64,000 bases of DNA, from NCBI GenBank assembly GCA_046760905.1, contig JBHIFB010000001.1, positions 38,064 through 102,063 on the forward strand, given 5' to 3'. The position numbers and the translations under genes were made by a program. Source of the DNA: Candidatus Glassbacteria bacterium. Its GTDB lineage: Bacteria > Gemmatimonadota > CAZMKB01. This document shows positions 5,899 to 59,793 of the stretch, piece after piece. Position 1 is the stretch's first letter; each line of letters opens with the position of its first letter. The notes below the pieces were generated by a model that saw nothing but the letters and a program-made list of their open reading frames with translations, did no database searches and was not told where the DNA came from.

Positions 5899-7329
5899 TC
5901 AATCCTCCTTTTGAATCTCTATCACGAGGGTATGCTGTGTGGCAGGTTCAACAGCTGCATGGGAAGAACGTCTTACACCGACAACCCACAGGATTCTATC
6001 AGCGTCCGTGAGAATGGGGACACTCTCACGCTTGTACCGAGGAACTTTTGCTTCCTGAAGGAGGTCACTAACCTTCTTAGTCCCAGTGAAGCCGAATGGA
6101 TTGATTCTATCTCCCTTCGTCCAGCTGCGAAGCTTGAGCGGAAAGAAGAGTTTTTCACGATCGAAATAGCCGAGATGCCTCCCTCCCCCCACTTGCACAT
6201 TCTCCACAATAGTTGCCCAATCGACCACATCCTGCTGCCTTACAGTGACCCTGTAAAGGCTTTTTCCTATCGATAATATTGTATCCAATCCCGGCTCAAG
6301 GAGGACTGAAACAGGGCGTGGCTCAGAGGCAGCTTCCCTGCTATTAGTGAGGGAGACAGTGTCGAAGTTTTTACAAGCGGTTATCCCACCTGGAAGCTGC
6401 ACTACCTTACCGCTTTGAGCTCTTTCACAAAAACGGGTGAAAATGTCGCTCGCTTTTCTCGGAAGTTCCTTCCCAGAACCGCTAATTTTCTTGTAAGAAT
6501 AGCGAAGCAGTTCTCTTCTCAAGAAATAATGATAATCTCTCCATTTTTTTAAATCAAGGCTTATTTCTTTTTCATCCGAAAACAGGAGGGAGCTTTCGTA
6601 CAATTCTCTCACCGTCGATTCAAGATATTCAACAACCTCGCTCACGGAGCCGGCGAGAGAGAGAATGTTTTCCGCTAAATGTTCCTTTTGATCCTTGGTG
6701 ATTGAGGATAGAAGATCGTTCCTTATAAAATTCCTGAGATTGTCAGAGAGACTGTTCGTAGGATCCTCACGATATTCTATTCCATGGAATTGAGCGTATT
6801 CGAGTATCTCAAGCTTTCTGAGCACAAGAAACGGCCGAATCAATCCTCTGTCATCTACTGCCTTTATGCCGGCAAGCCCCCTCAGACCGGTCCCCCTCAT
6901 AAGCCTCATAAGGATTGTCTCAACCTGGTCGTCCGCGTGATGGGCGGTGGCTATCTTTCGAGCGCCGGTTCTCTGTTTCAGGCGGAAAAGAAACCGGTAC
7001 CTCAGAATACGAGCCGCCTCTTCCAGGCCCAACCCACCCTGCCTCATGTAATCCTGCACATCCCCTTTACCAGAACTGAAGGGCAGTCCTCTCTTCGTTG
7101 CCTCTCTCTTCACAAGTTCACCGTCGAGAGCACCTTCATCACCTCTCAAGAGATGATCAAAATGTGCAATGTGGAGATGGAAACCTGCCTTAGCCGAAAA
7201 CTTCGAAAGCATGTCCATCAACACCATTGAATCGACCCCTCCTGAAATGGCACACAGGACCAGCTCCGATCCTCCGATCAATCTGTTCTCCTCAATGAAC
7301 GTCCAGACCTTATTCAGCGCCCCATACAT
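5899..7329 (-). CDS. tilS: tRNA(Ile)-lysidine synthetase
   Basis: N-terminal PP-loop ATPase motif SGGVDSMVL, about 470 aa. Sits immediately upstream of hpt-ftsH as in many bacteria. Confidence 0.85.
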   Translation of the reverse strand: MYGALNKVWTFIEENRLIGGSELVLCAISGGVDSMVLMDMLSKFSAKAGFHLHIAHFDHLLRGDEGALDGELVKREATKRGLPFSSGKGDVQDYMRQGGLGLEEAARILRYRFLFRLKQRTGARKIATAHHADDQVETILMRLMRGTGLRGLAGIKAVDDRGLIRPFLVLRKLEILEYAQFHGIEYREDPTNSLSDNLRNFIRNDLLSSITKDQKEHLAENILSLAGSVSEVVEYLESTVRELYESSLLFSDEKEISLDLKKWRDYHYFLRRELLRYSYKKISGSGKELPRKASDIFTRFCERAQSGKVVQLPGGITACKNFDTVSLTNSREAASEPRPVSVLLEPGLDTILSIGKSLYRVTVRQQDVVDWATIVENVQVGGGRHLGYFDREKLFFPLKLRSWTKGDRINPFGFTGTKKVSDLLQEAKVPRYKRESVPILTDADRILWVVGVRRSSHAAVEPATQHTLVIEIQKED

Positions 7330-7484: not shown

Positions 7485-7491
7485 TAAACCA

Positions 7492-7565
7492 TAGCGGTGC
7501 AGGGACTCGAACCCCGAACACGAGGATTATGATTCCTCTGCTCTAACCAATTGAGCTACACCGCC
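7492..7565 (-). tRNA. tRNA-Met (anticodon CAU, elongator-type); the 3' CCA is not encoded
   Basis: The reverse complement folds as a cloverleaf: acceptor stem GGCGGTG/CACCGCT with a G1-U72 wobble pair, D-stem GCTC/GAGC, anticodon stem GAGGA/TCCTC with loop AUCAUAA, T-loop TTCGAGT. It lacks the initiator hallmarks (1-72 mismatch, three consecutive G-C pairs in the anticodon stem). Confidence 0.8.
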
Positions 7566-7675
7566 AGTAAGCAAGCTTTTAGTGCGTTTAAGACGCTTCG
7601 ATAGGCATACCACCCTGCGTTTCGTTAAGAATTTACGGAACTATTCGATTTCTGTCAAGAAGATGTCATACCTCG

Positions 7676-7704
7676 TTGACAAGGTTTGGCTGAGGAGCTA
7701 AATT
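7676..7704 (+). promoter_or_regulatory. sigma70-like promoter TTGACA-N17-TAAATT for the rubrerythrin-like gene
   Basis: Consensus -35 hexamer with 17-nt spacing. Embedded in the 13-mer CCTCGTTGACAAG that also occurs at the radical SAM promoter. Confidence 0.4.
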
Positions 7705-7752
7705 GTATCAAGTAAGGTGACCATCGATTGTGAAAGAATCAAGGAGGAACGG

Positions 7753-8217
7753 ATGTCCCAACCTGTACGGGAGAAAGAGGATCTCATCAAGCTTGCGATA
7801 GAGCGGGAAATACGAGCTTACGATTTTTTTAATGACGCCGTTGACAGAATGAGTTATAAGGGCACAAAGGAGATGTTGAGGGCCCTGGCGATGGAAGAGC
7901 AGAGACACAGGGAAATGCTCGAGAGAGCCCTCAAGGAAGAAGTTGTCGAGCATATAGGAACCGATCCATCACCTATGGATTTCAAGATCGGTGATGCCTT
8001 GCTTGTGCCTGAACTCACGCAGGAGAGCACCCCGCAAGATCTGATGATCGTGGCAATGAAGTTGGAGGAGGCATCAGTCGCATTCTATCAGGCCATACTG
8101 CCACATTTCAGAGGTTCTGGCTTCGAGGACCTCATCAGTAGGCTCGTGAGAGAGGAACAGAAACACAAGGAGCGTCTTGAAAAAGAGTATGACGACCATT
8201 TTCTCTCTGAAATGTAG
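7753..8217 (+). CDS. rubrerythrin/ferritin-like di-iron domain protein
   Basis: Strong RBS AGGAGG 7 nt upstream of the ATG at 7753. Ferritin-like EEQRH and EEQKHKERLE helices (ExxH-type di-iron ligand pattern). Confidence 0.65.
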   Translation: MSQPVREKEDLIKLAIEREIRAYDFFNDAVDRMSYKGTKEMLRALAMEEQRHREMLERALKEEVVEHIGTDPSPMDFKIGDALLVPELTQESTPQDLMIVAMKLEEASVAFYQAILPHFRGSGFEDLISRLVREEQKHKERLEKEYDDHFLSEM

Positions 8218-8235
8218 AGATGCCGGCAGGTCTTA

Positions 8236-8853
8236 TCACTTGCTGCGGTCGAAGTCGTATTTGAGGAAGAGGAGGCCTTCCTTCCCATCATCAATTTCCC
8301 CCATCACTTCGAAACCTCGCTTGAGGTAGAAGTCGACTGCCCTTGTCCAGGATTTTTTCACACTCACTTTAAATCTAGGGCAACCAGCTTCCCGGAGAAT
8401 CCTCATCACCTCTTCCATCAATATGGTCCCGGTTCCCATTCCTCTACAGTCTTCGCGAGTTATCAGCGTAAGCAGTTCCGCCTTCGTCTCGCCTGAAAAA
8501 GAAGCCGGGTAACGGGCGGCTCTCACCACATTCTTGAGGATTCGGGGAGTTCGAAAGGATGCTCTGAGCACTTCGATTGCCATCGCCCAGCCTCTTCTCT
8601 TCAATATCTCGAAGAAGAATTTTCCACCATCCATAACGACCGTGGCAAATCCAAGCGTTTCATCACCTTTTTGAAATAATATCGTCCTCCCCCAGCGGGC
8701 ACCTATCATACCCTCGTAGGCAGCGAGGAGGAACTTTTCACCAAATGCGCTTATAATGGATGGTCCGAAATACTTGAGATGCAATGATGCAAGGTAAGCG
8801 CAATCTTCTTCCCGGATATCGGTAATGTGATACCCATGCCCTCTCTTATCCAT
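8236..8853 (-). CDS. GNAT family N-acetyltransferase
   Basis: GNAT acetyl-CoA binding core (RGMGTGTILMEEV...). Its start overlaps the stop of the upstream radical SAM gene by 8 nt, indicating an operon. Confidence 0.75.
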   Translation of the reverse strand: MDKRGHGYHITDIREEDCAYLASLHLKYFGPSIISAFGEKFLLAAYEGMIGARWGRTILFQKGDETLGFATVVMDGGKFFFEILKRRGWAMAIEVLRASFRTPRILKNVVRAARYPASFSGETKAELLTLITREDCRGMGTGTILMEEVMRILREAGCPRFKVSVKKSWTRAVDFYLKRGFEVMGEIDDGKEGLLFLKYDFDRSK

Positions 8854-10381
8854 GTACTCGTCCCAGCAGGTTCATATAAACTCGCTTCATCTTGGTCTTC
8901 AGTATCCTCTGCGACTTGGTCTCCTGAACCTGGGAGAATAGGCTCTTGAGTGTGCTGAACAGTTTGCGAGGATGGAAGAAGTAGCTCGTCATGAAAAAGA
9001 ACAGGTAAGCAAAAAGTCTCAATCTTGTGAGTTGACCATCGGTGATATGTTCAGACCATGAGACGGCTTTGAACAGATCATCGGTGGCAAGATCTCTGAA
9101 GAACTCATCGTTGAGTTCGAGTTGTCCCGAGCTGTACAGTTCCTGGAATAGCCGGCTACCGGGAAGAGGCACAAAAGTTGAAATGGCGATCTCATCAAGC
9201 CCCATCCTGGCAAGCTTGAGCATATAATTCACCGTCTCTTTCGCTTCCTCATACCTCTCACCCGGCATACCTATGAGGAAGAAGCCACATGTGGATATAT
9301 CGAGTTCATCAGACCACTTCACCGCCCGTTCGATTACGGAGAGATCCAGTTCTTTATCCACGAGGTTTAATACCCTGGATGAACCGCTCTCCGGAGCGTA
9401 TGTGATGTTGGTACAGCCGGACCTCTTCATCATCGAAAGGAGCTCCAGGCTGAGCTGCTCCGATCTGGTACCGTTGGGGATCTGCCATGTGAAATTCATC
9501 CCTCTCTCCTCTATCCCTTCGCAGAATCTAATCAGCCACTTCCTGTCACTCCCGATGGTAAGGTCTTCAAAATGTATGTCTGTTATGTCGTAGTTCTTTT
9601 GAAGTAATTGGATCTCATCCAGCACATTCTCCGGGCTCCTTGTTCTCCAGCGCGGCAGCCAGTGGCCAGGTGCGGTGCAGAAGGTGCACTTATGAGGACA
9701 ACCCCTTGTTGCCACTATCGGTGCAGTTCTTCCCCTTGATGCCCCGTGGAATTCCCTCGCCTGGATATAGTTCTCAAATGGTATCTTATCATACATCGGA
9801 AACGGCAGACTATCGAGATCCTCGACGAGATTCCATCGCGGATTGATCATCACCTCATTTCCATTCCTGTATGCGAGGCCGTTTATGGACTTCGGGTCCT
9901 CGCCGGATCCAACCCTTCTCGCAACCTCGAGAAGTATCATTTCACCCTCGCCGAGACCCACGTAATCCACCTCGAAGTGGGAGAGGGTATGCTCGGGCAT
10001 CGACGATGGAGTGACGCCCCCAAATATAATTGGGACATCCCCCCGTTCTCTCTTAATCATCGATACAAGATCTCCTGTCGGAGGATATGTACATCCGAAC
10101 AAGTTGGAAACAGCGATCAAACTAGCTTCAGCGGGTATCCGTTCCACTATCTCCTCCGGTTTCAGCCCTCTCAGACCAAATATCCCGTGCTGGTAAGTCT
10201 GGTCGATGGCTTCACCGAGACCGTCGATCACCGTCACCTGGTGGCCGTTTTCCTCAAGCACAGCGGCGAGATAACACACTCCGATGGGAGGTACTGAGGC
10301 TGTTGCAATAATGCTTTCGTGGTATGCATGGAAGACATTTATAATAGTTACCGGAATTCCCACATTGACCTCATGGGGCAT
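8846..10381 (-). CDS. B12-binding domain radical SAM protein (class B)
   Basis: N-terminal cobalamin-binding Rossmann-like region followed by the radical SAM CxxxCxxC motif (RGCPHKCTFCTAP). 511 aa. Confidence 0.85.
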   Translation of the reverse strand: MPHEVNVGIPVTIINVFHAYHESIIATASVPPIGVCYLAAVLEENGHQVTVIDGLGEAIDQTYQHGIFGLRGLKPEEIVERIPAEASLIAVSNLFGCTYPPTGDLVSMIKRERGDVPIIFGGVTPSSMPEHTLSHFEVDYVGLGEGEMILLEVARRVGSGEDPKSINGLAYRNGNEVMINPRWNLVEDLDSLPFPMYDKIPFENYIQAREFHGASRGRTAPIVATRGCPHKCTFCTAPGHWLPRWRTRSPENVLDEIQLLQKNYDITDIHFEDLTIGSDRKWLIRFCEGIEERGMNFTWQIPNGTRSEQLSLELLSMMKRSGCTNITYAPESGSSRVLNLVDKELDLSVIERAVKWSDELDISTCGFFLIGMPGERYEEAKETVNYMLKLARMGLDEIAISTFVPLPGSRLFQELYSSGQLELNDEFFRDLATDDLFKAVSWSEHITDGQLTRLRLFAYLFFFMTSYFFHPRKLFSTLKSLFSQVQETKSQRILKTKMKRVYMNLLGRVHG

Positions 10382-10402
10382 AGGTATCTGATTATTACAT
10401 AT

Positions 10403-10431
10403 ATTCTACCAGAAAATATCTAGCTTGTCAA
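10403..10431 (-). promoter_or_regulatory. sigma70-like promoter TTGACA-N17-TAGAAT (on the minus strand) for the rSAM-GNAT operon
   Basis: Consensus -35 and near-consensus -10 about 20 nt upstream of the ATG at 10381. Shares the 13-mer CCTCGTTGACAAG with the 7671-7683 promoter. Confidence 0.4.
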
Positions 10432-10603
10432 CGAGGCTCCTGGAGACCTTTCCAGCTCCATCATTTGTTTTATGAAAAACTTGTTTTAACAGAATAAGGA
10501 AACGTTTTCTGGAATAAAATGGGTAAATATGTAGCTTAATTTAAGAAAATTTCGGAAAATTTTAACATTATTGTATACTCATCAAATATATTTAAATTTA
10601 TCC

Positions 10604-10632
10604 TTGACAAACGGGAAAAAATGTGATAAAAA
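10604..10632 (+). promoter_or_regulatory. candidate promoter TTGACA-N17-TAAAAA upstream of the XRE-family regulator
   Basis: A -35 consensus hexamer in an AT-rich 300-nt intergenic region, with a TG dinucleotide in the extended -10 position. The -10 itself is weak. Confidence 0.3.
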
Positions 10633-10678
10633 TAATAAGGTATTTCACCCCAAACAAACGTAAGGGAGGTAATATAAA

Positions 10679-11362
10679 ATGCTGAAGGACATTCTCAAGA
10701 GCCGGATGCGTGAGCTTGGGCTCAACTACGCGAAATTGGCGAAGCTCGCAGGCATCTCTGATGTTTATGTCGGGAAAATCATCTCAGGCAGCAGAGTTCC
10801 CTCGGCACGGATTCTCAAAGCACTGTCTGAAGCCCTTGACCTGGATTACAATCTACTGAGAATCGAGGCATACAAGCAGAAGGCGCCTAAGGGGATAAAT
10901 GTCGTCTTTTCAAATGATGAGAGCCTCTCGGAAATAAAGATCAAGGACGCGGGCTTAAAGAATATTCCTGTGTTGACACCAGAGTCATGGGATAACGCCA
11001 GGGACATTCAGTACATGATCAAATCGCTCGACTCGATTGAGACGATCGAACCGAGTTTTTCCGACGATCCTCAGGCTTTCTGGGTCATGGTTCCCGAGAG
11101 TTCCAAAGGGAACGGGATGATAGGTGGTCGCATAGGCGCAGGGGATTATCTGCTTATAGAGCCAAACAAAGAGCCATCGAACGGAAACTACGTGCTCACG
11201 CTCGGCGAGCACAAGGTGGGGATTTCCATTTTCTACGAAACAGAGAAAGGCAAGTTCTACGTTCCCATCAATGCAATGGGAAATCCGCCAGACTACTTCT
11301 CAGGAAAGGAGCTCGGCTACACTCATTACAGGATAAGCCGAATTCTGACGAAGTTTCATTAA
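10679..11362 (+). CDS. XRE-family HTH transcriptional regulator with C-terminal LexA/CI-type S24 peptidase-like domain; the catalytic Ser appears to be replaced
   Basis: Strong RBS AGGGAGG. N-terminal HTH (LAKLAGISDVYVGKIISG). C-terminal KGNGMIGG...GDYLLIEP resembles the S24 GDSM...GDLV(V/L)V core, but reads GNGM. Confidence 0.7.
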   Translation: MLKDILKSRMRELGLNYAKLAKLAGISDVYVGKIISGSRVPSARILKALSEALDLDYNLLRIEAYKQKAPKGINVVFSNDESLSEIKIKDAGLKNIPVLTPESWDNARDIQYMIKSLDSIETIEPSFSDDPQAFWVMVPESSKGNGMIGGRIGAGDYLLIEPNKEPSNGNYVLTLGEHKVGISIFYETEKGKFYVPINAMGNPPDYFSGKELGYTHYRISRILTKFH

Positions 11363-11437: not shown

Positions 11438-12022
11438 TCAGATAGTCAGTACAATATCCGCCTTGAACTCGTTCAGCACCGCTTTCCCCAGAAGTGGGCC
11501 TGAGCCGCTCTGAGTCTCGAACCTGAGTTTCGCGGCATACTGGAATTTCTTTTTCTCGAAAAGCCCCTTCAACCTCTCATCTGCCGTAATCGTCAATCCG
11601 CCGTTAGTGGTGTGCTGAGGCCTGAGCTCTATCTTCTCGCTGAATATCCCCGGGACCGAAAACGGATCTTCACCAACCTCGCTGAAATAAACGATGTATT
11701 GTAGATTGGCCCAACCGCTCTCATTGATCATATCGTATCCGACGAAAAGATTCACCGACTCGATCGATTTCACGTCCCCGATTTCATCAGTGATGTCAAT
11801 GGTCTTTGCGGGGCTCTCGATCTCAGTCACTCCGCCATCGCCGGGGATCTGAGGATCCTCGCCATATACGAGCTCCTTCTGGGACGGGTCGAGATAATTG
11901 ATGAGGTTGAACTGCAACTCTATAACCGTATCTCCGATCGTCTCGCCGACATCGAACAGGTTGGACTTGCACGATGAAAAACAGAGGAGAATCACGCATG
12001 TAGCCGTAATGTACTTCGCCAT
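11438..12022 (-). CDS. hypothetical lipoprotein
   Basis: Signal peptide ending in a Cys-containing lipobox-like motif (LLCFSSC). No recognisable catalytic motif. Confidence 0.5.
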   Translation of the reverse strand: MAKYITATCVILLCFSSCKSNLFDVGETIGDTVIELQFNLINYLDPSQKELVYGEDPQIPGDGGVTEIESPAKTIDITDEIGDVKSIESVNLFVGYDMINESGWANLQYIVYFSEVGEDPFSVPGIFSEKIELRPQHTTNGGLTITADERLKGLFEKKKFQYAAKLRFETQSGSGPLLGKAVLNEFKADIVLTI

Positions 12023-13095: not shown

Positions 13096-13172
<77 letters not shown>

Positions 13173-13221
13173 CCACCCCGCGATTTAATAAAATATATTA
13201 TGATGATTTTCTCATGTCAAG

Positions 13222-40687: not shown

Positions 40688-41734
40688 CTACCTCTTGAGC
40701 TTTATCTTTCCTCTGAATTTTGCATACCTGCCGTAATCGATGTACTTCTTCTGTCCATCGAGCATGGTTCTTGTTTTTACTGCGCGATCTCTCACCTCCA
40801 GGAGCCTGTCTGTCGCCCTGAATACGAAGGCATCGGATCCGGCACCGGAGCCATATGAGACCATGAGGATTGTGTGTCCCGGATCTGCGATGTCTAAGAC
40901 TGCCGTGAGGCCCATGGGTGATGAGCCGGAGTACGTATTCCCCAATACGGGGCAGAGCCAGCCCGGTTCTATTTTCTCTCTAGGAATGCCCAGAAGCTTC
41001 CCGGCCCGCATCGGGAACTTCCCGTTAGGCTGATGAAAGATGGCCCAGTCGATTTCATCGGCTGAGAGGCCGCTCCTTTTCAGGATCCCTTTCGCGGCTC
41101 CGAGCGTGTGCTTGAAGTATGCAGGCTCTCCTGTGAACCTGCCCGCGTGACTCGGATAGAACTGGTACTCCCTCCGCCAGAAATCCGGGGTGTCCGTCAT
41201 GAAGGAATAGGTGGCCTCGACCGTGGCGAGCGGCTTTTCCTTTCCGAATATGAATGCGGCCGCCCCTGCGGCGGTTGAATACTCGAGGGCATCGCCCGGT
41301 GCACCCTGAGATGTGTCGGCACCGACTGCGAGCCCGTATTCAATCGCACCGCTTTCAACGAGGCCAATCGCAACGAACATTCCCTCGGAACCCGCCTTGC
41401 AGGCAAACTCGAAATCTGCGCAATGGACGTCGGGTGTGGCGCCGATTGCCTCGGCGAGAACTGTTCCGCTCGGTTTCACCGCATACGGGTGTGATTCTGA
41501 ACCCACATAGACGGCCCCAATTTTCGAAGGATCTATTCCAGCCCGTGCGAGCGCGTTCCTGCTTGCTTCGACTGACATGGTGATCGTGTCCTGATCAGGA
41601 GCAGGTACGGATTTTTCAGTGAGCATCAAACCTTTTTTGTAACTCTCGGCATTCGCTCCCCATACCTTCGCTATCTCCTCCACTTTTATTCGATGCCGCG
41701 GTATGTAGGCACCGTATCCCACTATACCGACCAT
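40688..41734 (-). CDS. hydroxymethylglutaryl-CoA synthase (archaeal-type HMGCS)
   Basis: [26 protein letters not shown]...[12 protein letters not shown] closely follows archaeal HMGCS. Start placed at the conserved MVGIVGYG; the ORF extends to 41770. Confidence 0.85.
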
Positions 41735-41865
41735 AGAAGAACCTCCGTCTCTCAATTCCACTAAGAACATTTAAAAATCAGTAGTTAAATATAGCACCGG
41801 CCAGAGAAGCTGTCAATTTACATGCTCAACGTGGATTACTATACTTGCTTAGTGGTCGCGTTCGC

Positions 41866-42000
41866 AATTACGGTAACATATTATCACTCTGGGAAGCGAC
41901 CTTGCGCGAGCTTCCGAAAAGGGCCCTGGGGGGCGCGAGCCCCTGTGGAAGTGCTGCGTTTCCTTCCCAGAAACGTTACCGTAATTATGAAACGCAGCAC
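41866..42000. repeat. two interleaved perfect 12-bp inverted repeats in a divergent intergenic region
   Basis: AATTACGGTAAC (41866-41877) pairs with GTTACCGTAATT (41975-41986). GTGCTGCGTTTC (41951-41962) pairs with GAAACGCAGCAC (41989-42000). The order is A..B..A'..B'. Confidence 0.55.
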
Positions 42001-42030
42001 TTAGGAGAACATACCTGCAGGGAGTGAAGG

Positions 42031-43506
42031 ATGAAACAGATTTTCTATTTCACAATTATGATTTTCAATGTCATCTTTGTCCTTCCCGGTCAACTGACGG
42101 ATGGAAGGTTCCAGGGAGAAATTGGGAAACAGGAGCTGATAAGGCAACAGAATCCAGGGAGCAGAGCAATTATCAATTATGCGGGTAACAGGCCTCAATA
42201 CACTCCGGGTGCTCGTATTAAGGGTGGGACAGGTTCGAGTGGTATAGAGAAAGACGAATTTGGTGGATTGAAAATCTCAAAGTTTGAGGCGACGGGATTT
42301 TTCCGGCTAGAGAAATTAGATGGAAGGTGGTTTCTAGTGACACCTCAGGGCCATCCCTTTTATATAGTTGCTATAGATGGTGTAACACCATGGTATAAGG
42401 ACTACAAGAATACATCCTTTGAAACGAGATATAAGAAGAGATTCATATTATGGGCCAATATCGCCGTTGATAGAATCAGTTGGTTGGGGTTTAATACATT
42501 AGCGCATAAAACCGCCGAACAATGCATAGAGCAAATGGTAAACGGTAACGTCTGGAAAATCCCGTTCACAGTATTGGTGCCATTTGTGGAGAAGAAGACT
42601 TTTCCTGATGTTTTTTCTGAAGATTTTAGAAACCTAGTAGACCGTAAAGCGAAAGAATATTGTGAGCCATTGAAGGAGGAGTCCTATCTCGTGGGATATT
42701 TTCTCGGTAATGAACTCGATCTTAACCTTTACCGCCGTGGAGAAATAGACTGGCGAACCAGGTGGGTGAGGGCTCTTCTGAGTCAGGAACCTGACACACC
42801 GGCCAGAAGACAGTTTGCAGCTCTGCTTGAGAAAAAATTCCATACTATCGATGAACTCACCGAGGAGTTCGGTGAATTAAAACCGCGCTTTAGCTCCTTT
42901 GATGAGATAGGATTCAATCAAATATGGCCTGCTTTCAAGAAGGGGATCCCGCAAGCTGTTGAAATCGTGAAAGCCTACAATGCTCAAATAGCCGAAAGGT
43001 TCTACAAGCTGACCAGTGAAGCAATAAAAAGATATGATGGTAATCATCTCATCCTGGGATCGAGGTTTGCCAACGACGCAGAGATAGAAGTGTTGAACTC
43101 GACCAGAGATTATACCGATGTCGTCTCCTTTAACAAATATCCTTTAAAAGGACGGTTGCCGGTCTCTCTCTATGAGAAGATGTATGGCAATACAGAGAAG
43201 CCTCTATTTCACACAGAGTTTTCATATCTCGAAGAGGGCAGGGATGGGAATTATCCACCCGCACCGGACCAGGAGACCCGTGGGCTGTATTATACTAAGT
43301 TGGTGAGGGCAATGGTTGAAGTCGATGAAGTAGTGGGGTACGGTTGGCATGAGATGTTCGATCCAAAATATGGATCGAATTTCGGCCTTTTCGATGTACA
43401 TGATGAATTATACTATGATGCGGCGAAGCATATAATGGAGGCAAATCGACTTGTTGAGAGAAGATTCGCTGAGATAATTGCAAAGAAGATCAATGGGAGG
43501 AAGTGA
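42031..43506 (+). CDS. putative clan GH-A (TIM-barrel) glycoside hydrolase, secreted
   Basis: Signal peptide. Candidate acid/base motif LGNELD and nucleophile motif HTEFSY with appropriate spacing for GH-A enzymes. Confidence 0.45.
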   Translation: MKQIFYFTIMIFNVIFVLPGQLTDGRFQGEIGKQELIRQQNPGSRAIINYAGNRPQYTPGARIKGGTGSSGIEKDEFGGLKISKFEATGFFRLEKLDGRWFLVTPQGHPFYIVAIDGVTPWYKDYKNTSFETRYKKRFILWANIAVDRISWLGFNTLAHKTAEQCIEQMVNGNVWKIPFTVLVPFVEKKTFPDVFSEDFRNLVDRKAKEYCEPLKEESYLVGYFLGNELDLNLYRRGEIDWRTRWVRALLSQEPDTPARRQFAALLEKKFHTIDELTEEFGELKPRFSSFDEIGFNQIWPAFKKGIPQAVEIVKAYNAQIAERFYKLTSEAIKRYDGNHLILGSRFANDAEIEVLNSTRDYTDVVSFNKYPLKGRLPVSLYEKMYGNTEKPLFHTEFSYLEEGRDGNYPPAPDQETRGLYYTKLVRAMVEVDEVVGYGWHEMFDPKYGSNFGLFDVHDELYYDAAKHIMEANRLVERRFAEIIAKKINGRK

Positions 43507-50195: not shown

Positions 50196-51394
50196 AAATT
50201 CCCCATCCCCTTTATCGGTATACCACGAGTCTTAGCATATTCCTCGATAATCTCGACTGTCTTCCTCGCGCGCACATCCCAGGTGTTCGCCCTTGCTACC
50301 CTCAAGCGCTCCTCGATTTTATCCTCTCCCTCAGCAAGTGCCTTTTCCAGTGCTTCGATAAAATCCTCTGTCCCTTCACAGAGGTATAGAACGTTCTGAT
50401 AATCGGCAAGTGCCGGAATGTAAATTGACACCACGGCTTTCCCACCGGCAAGGTGCTCAAATGTTTTTGTCGGGAATGCGTATTTGCTCCAATCTCCCTG
50501 ACGGTAAGGCATATAACAGACATCAAGGCCTTTCGTGTATGCCGGTAATTCTGCGAGTGTCTTCTTCCCGAGAAAATGTACGTTACCGATACCTTTCACA
50601 TGGGAAGGTACTGGAGTGAAGTGAGGACCAATTAAAACCTGATGCCAGTGTGGTCTTCGCTTTGAAATTTCTAAAATAAGCTCCCAGTCCATTCGGAGAT
50701 TGTCGATGTTGCCGATGAAGCCTATACGGGGGTGGGGAATCGAGTCGAGATCCTCAGGAATCACTGCATCCGGGCTCAACGCTTGCTCGAAAAGTCCGGT
50801 ATCGACTCCCGGTGGAAAGAGATAGGTTCTTGGATGGATTTTGCTCTTCGCTTCGTAGAGCGTTTTCGTGGTCGTGAAAACTATGTCTGCTTTCTCTATG
50901 AATTCCCTCTCGAGACGGCTGAGTCCCAGTTTTCTCCTCTTCGGAATCACGAAAGCAGAAACCTCGTCATGGCAGCCATAAATGACTAACTTACTACCGA
51001 GTCGGGGCGAAGGGGAGATCATAAACGGTGCGTACACCCAGAGAATCGGTTCTTCGAATCCAATTTTCTGGAAGACCTTTCGTAACGACCGTTCTATCCT
51101 CTTCCTGTTGAACCTGTCGTTCGCCCCTAAGATCCCGTACTGGAGTAAAAGCGGTGGCGGAGTGTAAAGATACATGTTTTCGTCGATTGTTTGAATGCCG
51201 GCTCTCCAGTTCTTCCACTGCTTCTTGAGATTCGGGATAAGCGAAGGGTGGAGAAGGAACGTGGCTAGTGAGAATGGGGGGTCCACGAATAAGACTCTGT
51301 TCTCCCTCTTCAGTTTGTTCATCATGTGATGCATTAAAAGGGGTACGAAATCATACGTCACCCATGAAAGGCATACGATGTTCTCACCCTTCAT
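50192..51394 (-). CDS. glycosyltransferase (GT-B, family 1/4-like)
   Basis: GT-B C-terminal half with a conserved E...E-like region. Overlaps the downstream gene by 4 nt. Family assignment is moderate. Confidence 0.55.
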   Translation of the reverse strand: MKGENIVCLSWVTYDFVPLLMHHMMNKLKRENRVLFVDPPFSLATFLLHPSLIPNLKKQWKNWRAGIQTIDENMYLYTPPPLLLQYGILGANDRFNRKRIERSLRKVFQKIGFEEPILWVYAPFMISPSPRLGSKLVIYGCHDEVSAFVIPKRRKLGLSRLEREFIEKADIVFTTTKTLYEAKSKIHPRTYLFPPGVDTGLFEQALSPDAVIPEDLDSIPHPRIGFIGNIDNLRMDWELILEISKRRPHWHQVLIGPHFTPVPSHVKGIGNVHFLGKKTLAELPAYTKGLDVCYMPYRQGDWSKYAFPTKTFEHLAGGKAVVSIYIPALADYQNVLYLCEGTEDFIEALEKALAEGEDKIEERLRVARANTWDVRARKTVEIIEEYAKTRGIPIKGMGNL

Positions 51395-59338: not shown

Positions 59339-59793
59339 CGGGCCTTCTGTCCAAAAGTTCTTTCCAGCATGACAGGTAGAATGTTAAAGCCACAGTCTGT
59401 ACTTGTCAATTTATACCGGATGGGACTTATCAAAAAGAGCACGGGTAAGGCTAAAGTATCTATCAGCTTAGGAGGGATTTAAAATCGTGCTCTGGGCGTC
59501 AGGCAGATGAAATTATTACCTGTCAAGGAGGAAGTTTTTGACTTCCCTTAAATCGGGAGAGAGTAAGTTTCCTCGGGTTAGATGCCTCATGCCGGGGCAA
59601 GTCGTGGGAGTGGTAAATCCGGGGGGCTTTAGGCCGACAAATGAAAATTTCGGCACAGGAATTGCCATTTAAGATTGTGTTTGGAAAGAATGCTAAGATT
59701 AATCATAGGCTAAACTTGAAAAGACATGCGGTTTTTTTAACTTTTCATTGACTTGTGACTCTCTTGAAGGGAGTTATTAAGGGGAAGGTGAAG

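Follow-up and report, generated by a model that had tools for sequence, protein, structure and literature searches.

Two exact copies of the 13-nucleotide (nt) sequence CCTCGTTGACAAG, one on each strand, lie over the -35 boxes of two inward-facing promoters in a 64-kb stretch of a Candidatus Glassbacteria bacterium contig (the window, by which we mean the whole stretch of DNA that was analyzed). In all probability these are two canonical sigma-70-type promoters, and the identity of the bases flanking their -35 hexamers is a matter of chance. We propose that the 13-mers mark two separate housekeeping (sigma-70/RpoD-type) promoters, one of which (P_rbr) would transcribe a gene for an erythrin-like, ferritin-family protein and the other (P_op) an operon encoding a B12-binding radical S-adenosylmethionine (SAM) enzyme and a GNAT acetyltransferase. 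RNA polymerase holoenzyme would recognize TTGACA, the 17-nt spacer, and TAAATT or TGnTAGAAT, while the CCTCG upstream and the AG downstream of the hexamer would have no shared function. What we infer from these sequences is that P_rbr and P_op work as promoters and that their flanks are not read by any factor. The other seven bases of the match are most likely coincidental, since they are retained in none of the related genomes that have these genes and promoters. A sequence-only reading of this DNA had taken the pair instead as a common regulator, activator or alternative sigma site, and as the sign of a regulon. The copies and the promoters that contain them are as follows.

7671–7683, plus strand: 13-mer copy A, CCTCGTTGACAAG, over the -35 box of the erythrin promoter; exact match.
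10424–10436, minus strand: 13-mer copy B, CCTCGTTGACAAG, over the -35 box of the operon promoter; exact match.
7676–7704, plus strand: P_rbr, with -35 TTGACA at 7676–7681, a 17-nt spacer and -10 TAAATT at 7699–7704.
10403–10431, minus strand: P_op, with -35 TTGACA at 10431–10426, a 17-nt spacer ending in TGG and -10 TAGAAT at 10408–10403.

The identity of the two copies, the 17-nt spacers and the good -10 elements, all described in the sequence-only reading, can be read directly from the DNA. The -35 hexamer matches the consensus at six of six positions in both promoters, while the -10 element matches at four of six in P_rbr and five of six in P_op. A TG ahead of the P_op -10 box forms an extended -10 (TGnTAGAAT), so that the P_op core combines 11 of 12 hexamer matches with this additional element. 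Between the end of the -10 box and the start codon there are 48 nt at P_rbr (ATG at 7753, with a Shine-Dalgarno AAGGAGG) and about 39 nt at P_op (GTG at 10363, with GAGG). No UP element (an A/T-rich tract at about -40 to -60) was found, the CCTCG flank being G+C-rich and just 5 nt long, and the sequences farther upstream are unrelated between the two promoters. Both copies of CCTCGTTGACAAG are also present in L001, an independent Logan assembly covering the identical locus, and the pair is therefore not an assembly artifact. The window holds no further copy with zero or one mismatch.

In these respects the sites resemble canonical sigma-70 (RpoD) promoters, including the extended -10 (TGn) subclass: they combine TTGACA, a 17-nt spacer, and TAAATT or TGnTAGAAT, they lie 40–50 nt upstream of starts that bear a Shine-Dalgarno sequence, and the same architecture stands before the tRNA genes of the window. 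Nothing essential is different, the host being an uncultured Glassbacteria lineage in which, to our knowledge, no promoters have been experimentally mapped.

The evidence that separates the core elements from their flanks is comparative. Orthologous neighborhoods were recovered by exact-protein look-ups from six other Glassbacteria genomes, namely L086, L171 (the same as L005 and L090), L004, L087 (the same as L172), L088 (the same as L089) and L173; one more copy of the radical SAM operon promoter, in another genomic setting, comes from L002/L003. In the databases, the closest proteins carry the annotation Candidatus Glassbacteria, a lineage placed as a class of Gemmatimonadota (PMC11596202). 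Identity to the proteins of the window is 58–75% for the erythrin-like protein, 56–69% for the GNAT protein (full-length matches, in all related loci), 72–79% for the radical SAM enzyme and 77–83% for an XRE-type regulator, the most conserved protein of the neighborhood. P_rbr reads TTGACA-17-TAAATT in all eight orthologous loci from seven genomes, and P_op reads TTGACA-17-TA(G/A/C)AAT in all ten of its orthologous loci. No block of the orthologous intergenic regions is invariant apart from the -35 hexamer, the -10 boxes and the 17-nt spacing, and this strengthens the earlier proposal that both sites are promoters, which is very probably correct. The 5 nt immediately upstream of the -35 hexamer, by genome, are given below.

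P_rbr: CCTCG, AGTGA, CGAGA, TTCAA, TCTAA, CGTGA, GATGT.
P_op: CCTCG, ATACG, GTGTG, GTTCA, TCAAG, GGACG, AGGCG, TGTCG.

In none of the six other genomes are the CCTCG/AG flanks retained. When P_rbr and P_op are compared within each of these genomes, they have in common TTGACA and zero to two contiguous bases, and the seven-base flank identity is therefore confined to the genome of the window. CG ahead of the hexamer is common at P_op; orthologous copies of P_rbr usually carry GA or AA at that place, and the erythrin flank of the window is therefore the derived state. A 3-nt deletion in an L171-like TCGAGATTGACA (TCGAGA-TTGACA) would give TCG-TTGACA, a putative step toward the present sequence. 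A likeness between the two promoters of L004, GTTCA(A)TTGACA, was considered as within-genome co-evolution and rejected, since the two are 1 nt out of register and the other five genomes show no comparable likeness.

Other promoters of the window bear on whether the flanks belong to a wider promoter class, and two of them lie beside the pair.

7630–7658, minus strand: tRNA-CAT promoter, TTGACA-17-TAAATT, divergent from and back to back with P_rbr; serves the tRNA-CAT gene at 7491–7566 (minus strand).
10604–10633, plus strand: P_xre, the regulator promoter, TTGACA followed by AACGGGAAAAAATGTGA and then TAAAAA, without CCTCG/AG flanks.

The TTTCTGTCAA block of the tRNA-CAT promoter is invariant in the orthologue alignment, and a second tRNA-CAT promoter, at 13220 (minus strand), has the same core architecture as the one at 7658 (minus strand), P_rbr and P_op, an architecture that also recurs at other intergenic sites of the window. 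The gene for a second tRNA-CAT is at 13106–13182. P_xre, which reads ATCCTTGACAAAC, is itself conserved, the block TTGACAAACGGG..AAAATGTG recurring in L087, L090 and L004. Because the other TTGACA promoters of the window, including both tRNA-CAT promoters, lack the CCTCG/AG flanks, these flanks are not a general promoter feature of the host organism. The same promoters bear on the suggestion that an alternative sigma factor, or a variant of sigma region 4 that needs bases outside the hexamer, reads an extended -35 element. The identical flanks are the one argument for such a factor, while the -35 and -10 hexamers and their spacing follow the housekeeping consensus and are of the same type as those of the tRNA promoters. 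Features of extracytoplasmic function (ECF; GAAC..CGTC), sigma-54 (GG-N10-GC) or sigma-28 promoters are absent, and the flanks are not conserved among orthologous promoters. We consider an alternative sigma site scarcely credible.

Whether the flank match exceeds chance was assessed by counts over the 64-kb window. Exact 13-mers recur as 123 pairs, direct or inverted, where Markov-1 simulations give about 88 on average; 22 of the 123 are pairs whose members lie within 5 kb of each other, and another such pair (7780/9188) lies inside the module region itself. The 45 TTGACA sites make 990 pairs, for which at least seven contiguous shared flank bases are expected 0.38 times and observed twice. 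The second of these pairs shares the 13-mer ATGTAAATTGACA, with hexamers at 41816 (minus strand) and 50425 (plus strand), and spans 41804–41816 (minus strand) and 50418–50430 (plus strand) as computed from the hexamer positions. It is unconnected with the module locus and serves as an internal control for the rate at which such coincidences arise.

Several observations weigh against coincidence. First, the regulator gene (10679–11362) adjoins the module. Second, the match has p ~0.01–0.03 among the 9–12 credible promoters of the window, and p ~4e-4 for at least seven identical flank bases when the adjacent pair alone is considered, a value to be read in the light of the fact that the adjacent pair and the flank length were picked after the data had been seen. 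Finally, matches to CCTCGTTGACAAG with at most two mismatches are nominally enriched (7 observed, 1.34 expected). These seven include both exact copies, four of the other five lie inside open reading frames (ORFs), and the fifth (59519–59531) is intergenic with no -10 element at 16–18 nt; promoter features are absent from all five of these two-mismatch relatives. A search for CCTCGTTGACAAG with zero or one mismatch over 1.27 Mb of fetched loci returned further matches that are only coding or unrelated, and a match in L002, GCTCGTTGACAAG, was set aside since it lies inside the radical SAM coding sequence (codons L-V-D-K). What makes chance plausible is chiefly the post hoc choice of the pair.

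The list of exact 13-mer pairs also contained a 14-nt perfect inverted repeat, GAAACGCAGCACTT, at 41949–41962 with its complement at 41989–42002, about 26 nt apart. It is intergenic, between the ORFs at 40688–41770 (minus strand) and 42031–43506 (plus strand).

The regulator gene beside P_op gives substance to the reading in which CCTCGTTGACAAG is a lineage-specific operator, bound over both -35 boxes by a regulator, possibly the adjacent XRE/S24-like protein, that co-represses or co-activates both transcription units in this genome only. The identity is exact and in the same register to the -35 and -10 boxes at two neighboring promoters, the per-pair chance is as low as given above, and the divergent helix-turn-helix (HTH) regulator gene adjoins P_op in an arrangement that is kept in six related loci. 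Two nearby promoters with a repeated sequence on their -35 boxes, beside a divergent HTH gene, are also what is seen with -35-overlapping regulon operators such as the repressor sites of LexA/CI/XRE-type HTH proteins. Unlike such operators, the 13-mer has no dyad, no conservation despite a conserved regulator, no copy at the promoter of the regulator gene and no further copies at other promoters in the window or the related loci. Conservation is the most telling of these differences: the HTH of the XRE regulator (77–83% identical) is almost invariant across five orthologues, and its operator should therefore be conserved as well, yet the flanks are unconserved in six genomes. On inspection the 13-mer shows no dyad or direct-repeat structure beyond TTG-A-CAA, the best 12-nt dyad pairing at four of six positions, and a search of the region 7560–7760 returned no repeats, inverted or direct. 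In addition, the distance between the -35 box of P_rbr and that of the back-to-back tRNA promoter varies among loci (17, 37 and 13 nt), which argues against a fixed nucleoprotein architecture.

A candidate for a conserved XRE operator, the perfect repeat AACACATTTT-N16-AAAATGTGTT around P_xre in L005/L090, was dropped because neither the window nor L087 preserves the right arm of the repeat. The common regulator or activator site, and with it the regulon of the sequence-only reading, is not supported, and we regard an operator at these sites as unlikely. It is equally doubtful that CCTCG..AG has recently been recruited as a regulator site in this lineage, coupling the di-iron erythrin to the oxygen-sensitive B12 radical SAM/GNAT operon. 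A true operator at the flank would place the di-iron protein and the cobalamin radical SAM enzyme of this uncultured lineage in one small regulon.

A further account of the identical flanks is shared ancestry of the two -35 regions: a promoter cassette may have been duplicated, or a short tract may have undergone gene conversion between the inverted copies. The geometry allows intramolecular exchange, as the copies are inverted and 2.7 kb apart. However, identity between the two promoters ends abruptly after 13 nt, with unrelated spacers and -10 boxes, and 13 nt is far below the length of a typical gene-conversion tract. Each promoter moreover keeps its own signature across seven genomes, TAAATT at P_rbr versus TAnAAT at P_op, and the two were therefore distinct before the lineage split; the P_op -10 box is also preceded by TTTTCTG in most of the loci that carry the radical SAM gene. 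Shared ancestry is accordingly very improbable, and two separate sigma-70-type promoters with flanks that match by chance remain the preferred explanation of the pair.

The genes that these promoters would serve, and those around them, are as follows.

7753–8217, plus strand: erythrin-like ferritin-family di-iron protein, 154 amino acids (aa); Pfam Rubrerythrin (2.3e-11) and Ferritin_2; Shine-Dalgarno AAGGAGG at 7741–7747.
8236–8853, minus strand: GNAT acetyltransferase, 205 aa; Pfam Acetyltransf_1 (6.8e-11).
8846–10381, minus strand: class B (B12-binding) radical SAM enzyme; Pfam B12-binding and Radical_SAM.
10679–11362, plus strand: HTH_3 (XRE) regulator with a marginal S24-like C-terminal domain; Pfam HTH_3 and Peptidase_S24.
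11438–12022, minus strand: 194-aa protein without a family match, with a lipoprotein-like N-terminus by inspection; present only in genomes that bear the radical SAM gene.
7491–7566, minus strand: tRNA-CAT, adjoining the tRNA-Ile lysidine synthetase gene tilS at 5899–7329 (minus strand).

P_rbr and P_op face inward around the erythrin-like gene and the radical SAM/GNAT operon, and the description of the two sites as bracketing a convergent module with an XRE-type regulator gene adjoining is borne out by gene calls backed by Pfam. The earlier label of a rubrerythrin-like protein has to be narrowed. The ferritin-family match stands, and the protein resembles erythrin/sulerythrin-type di-iron proteins in its four-helix-bundle Rubrerythrin/Ferritin_2 match and in its predicted E and ExxH ligand positions (E and ExxH, twice), which are invariant in five orthologues. 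Unlike a strict rubrerythrin, it matches the ferritin-like domain only: because it has 154 aa, no cysteine and no C-terminal rubredoxin-like Cys4 domain, the product of 7753–8217 falls outside the rubrerythrins proper, and its function is predicted from sequence.

The radical SAM enzyme resembles class B cobalamin-dependent radical SAM proteins (P- and C-methyltransferases, HpnJ and BchE), with an N-terminal B12-binding domain followed by the radical SAM core, and its CxxxCxxC motif lies in an invariant block with C228, C232 and C235, as in class B enzymes. Unlike the named class B families, it reaches no NCBIfam equivalog cut-off (the best match scores 198.6 bits, the cut-off being 575), and its solved relatives are distant, the closest structure matching at only E = 1.2e-16. 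Its real start is probably the GTG at 10363, with GAGG ahead of it; the ATG at 10381 is not preceded by a Shine-Dalgarno sequence and is the less likely start. The protein is 505 aa long in the NCBI model, and orthologues align from about GTG 10363.

The Peptidase_S24 match of the XRE regulator barely exceeds its threshold (23.4 bits, with the cut-off at 23.3). A BLASTP alignment of the regulator to Escherichia coli LexA is weak; it sets the serine of the LexA GMSM motif against a serine-free GNGMIG in the regulator, and GNGMIG is invariant in five orthologues. The S24-like domain is probably a non-cleaving dimerization or sensor domain.

The start of the GNAT gene overlaps the stop of the radical SAM gene by 8 nt, its own stop lies 18 nt from the erythrin stop, and the erythrin and GNAT stop codons are 12–22 nt apart in every locus (8217 and 8236 in the window, and also in L086, L004, L087, L088 and L090). 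No terminator hairpin was found between the convergent erythrin and GNAT genes (fold z-scores of -0.28 and +0.67). With stops this close and no terminator-like hairpin, transcription from the two strong, convergent promoters is expected to yield RNAs with overlapping 3' ends, an arrangement that could permit antisense effects or transcriptional interference. Since the gene ends are 18 nt apart with no terminator between them, it is also conceivable, though unlikely, that interference between two convergent promoters of equal strength would make the units mutually exclusive rather than co-expressed.

The comparison also changes the composition of the module. The conserved core of the neighborhood consists of the XRE regulator gene, the GNAT gene convergent with the erythrin gene, tRNA-CAT, tilS and hpt. 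The rubrerythrin/GNAT/B12 radical SAM module of the sequence-only reading is an overstatement, because in three related genomes the erythrin and GNAT genes are paired while the radical SAM gene is lacking. In L087, L172 and L173 the GNAT gene stands directly behind the same TTGACA-17-TAGAAT promoter without a radical SAM gene, and L088 is probably arranged likewise. The B12 radical SAM gene is thus accessory. Both it and the gene for the 194-aa lipoprotein-like protein, which sits on the far side of the XRE gene in loci that bear the radical SAM gene, are found in the window, L001, L004, L005, L090 and L171, and both are absent from L087, L172 and L173. The two proteins could be functionally linked.

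Beyond Glassbacteria, no radical SAM or erythrin homologue among the matches listed was linked to GNAT, erythrin or XRE genes. A scan of genome contigs with the radical SAM alignment gave, among the matches listed, homologues from other phyla of at most 37% identity, and these lack GNAT, erythrin or XRE neighbors and were of no use for comparing promoters. A scan of metagenome contigs with the radical SAM protein found no relatives, and in a scan of metagenome contigs with the erythrin alignment the best of the matches listed was 39% identical and showed no linkage to a GNAT gene.

The spacer between the XRE and radical SAM genes is enlarged to about 700 bp in L090 (2427–3133) and L171 (2282–2990), with a second promoter, TTGACA-17-TATGAT, inside it; in L090 it also holds a called ORF of 90 aa without a family match. 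In L086 the ~540 bp upstream of the radical SAM promoter contain direct and inverted repeats (180–430), one direct repeat having a 52-nt spacing, and this stretch, which begins at the contig end, carries no regulator gene. The position of tRNA-CAT beside tilS is the same in L086, L087, L088, L171, L172 and L173, and the tRNA-CAT at 7491–7566 may be tRNA-Ile2, the substrate of TilS, rather than tRNA-Met.

The analysis has two by-products for the biology of this lineage. The radical SAM gene and the linked lipoprotein gene form an accessory insertion into a neighborhood of XRE regulator, GNAT, erythrin, tRNA-CAT and tilS genes. The clean comparative footprint of the promoters indicates that Glassbacteria use TTGACA-17-TAnAAT promoters like those of E. 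coli.

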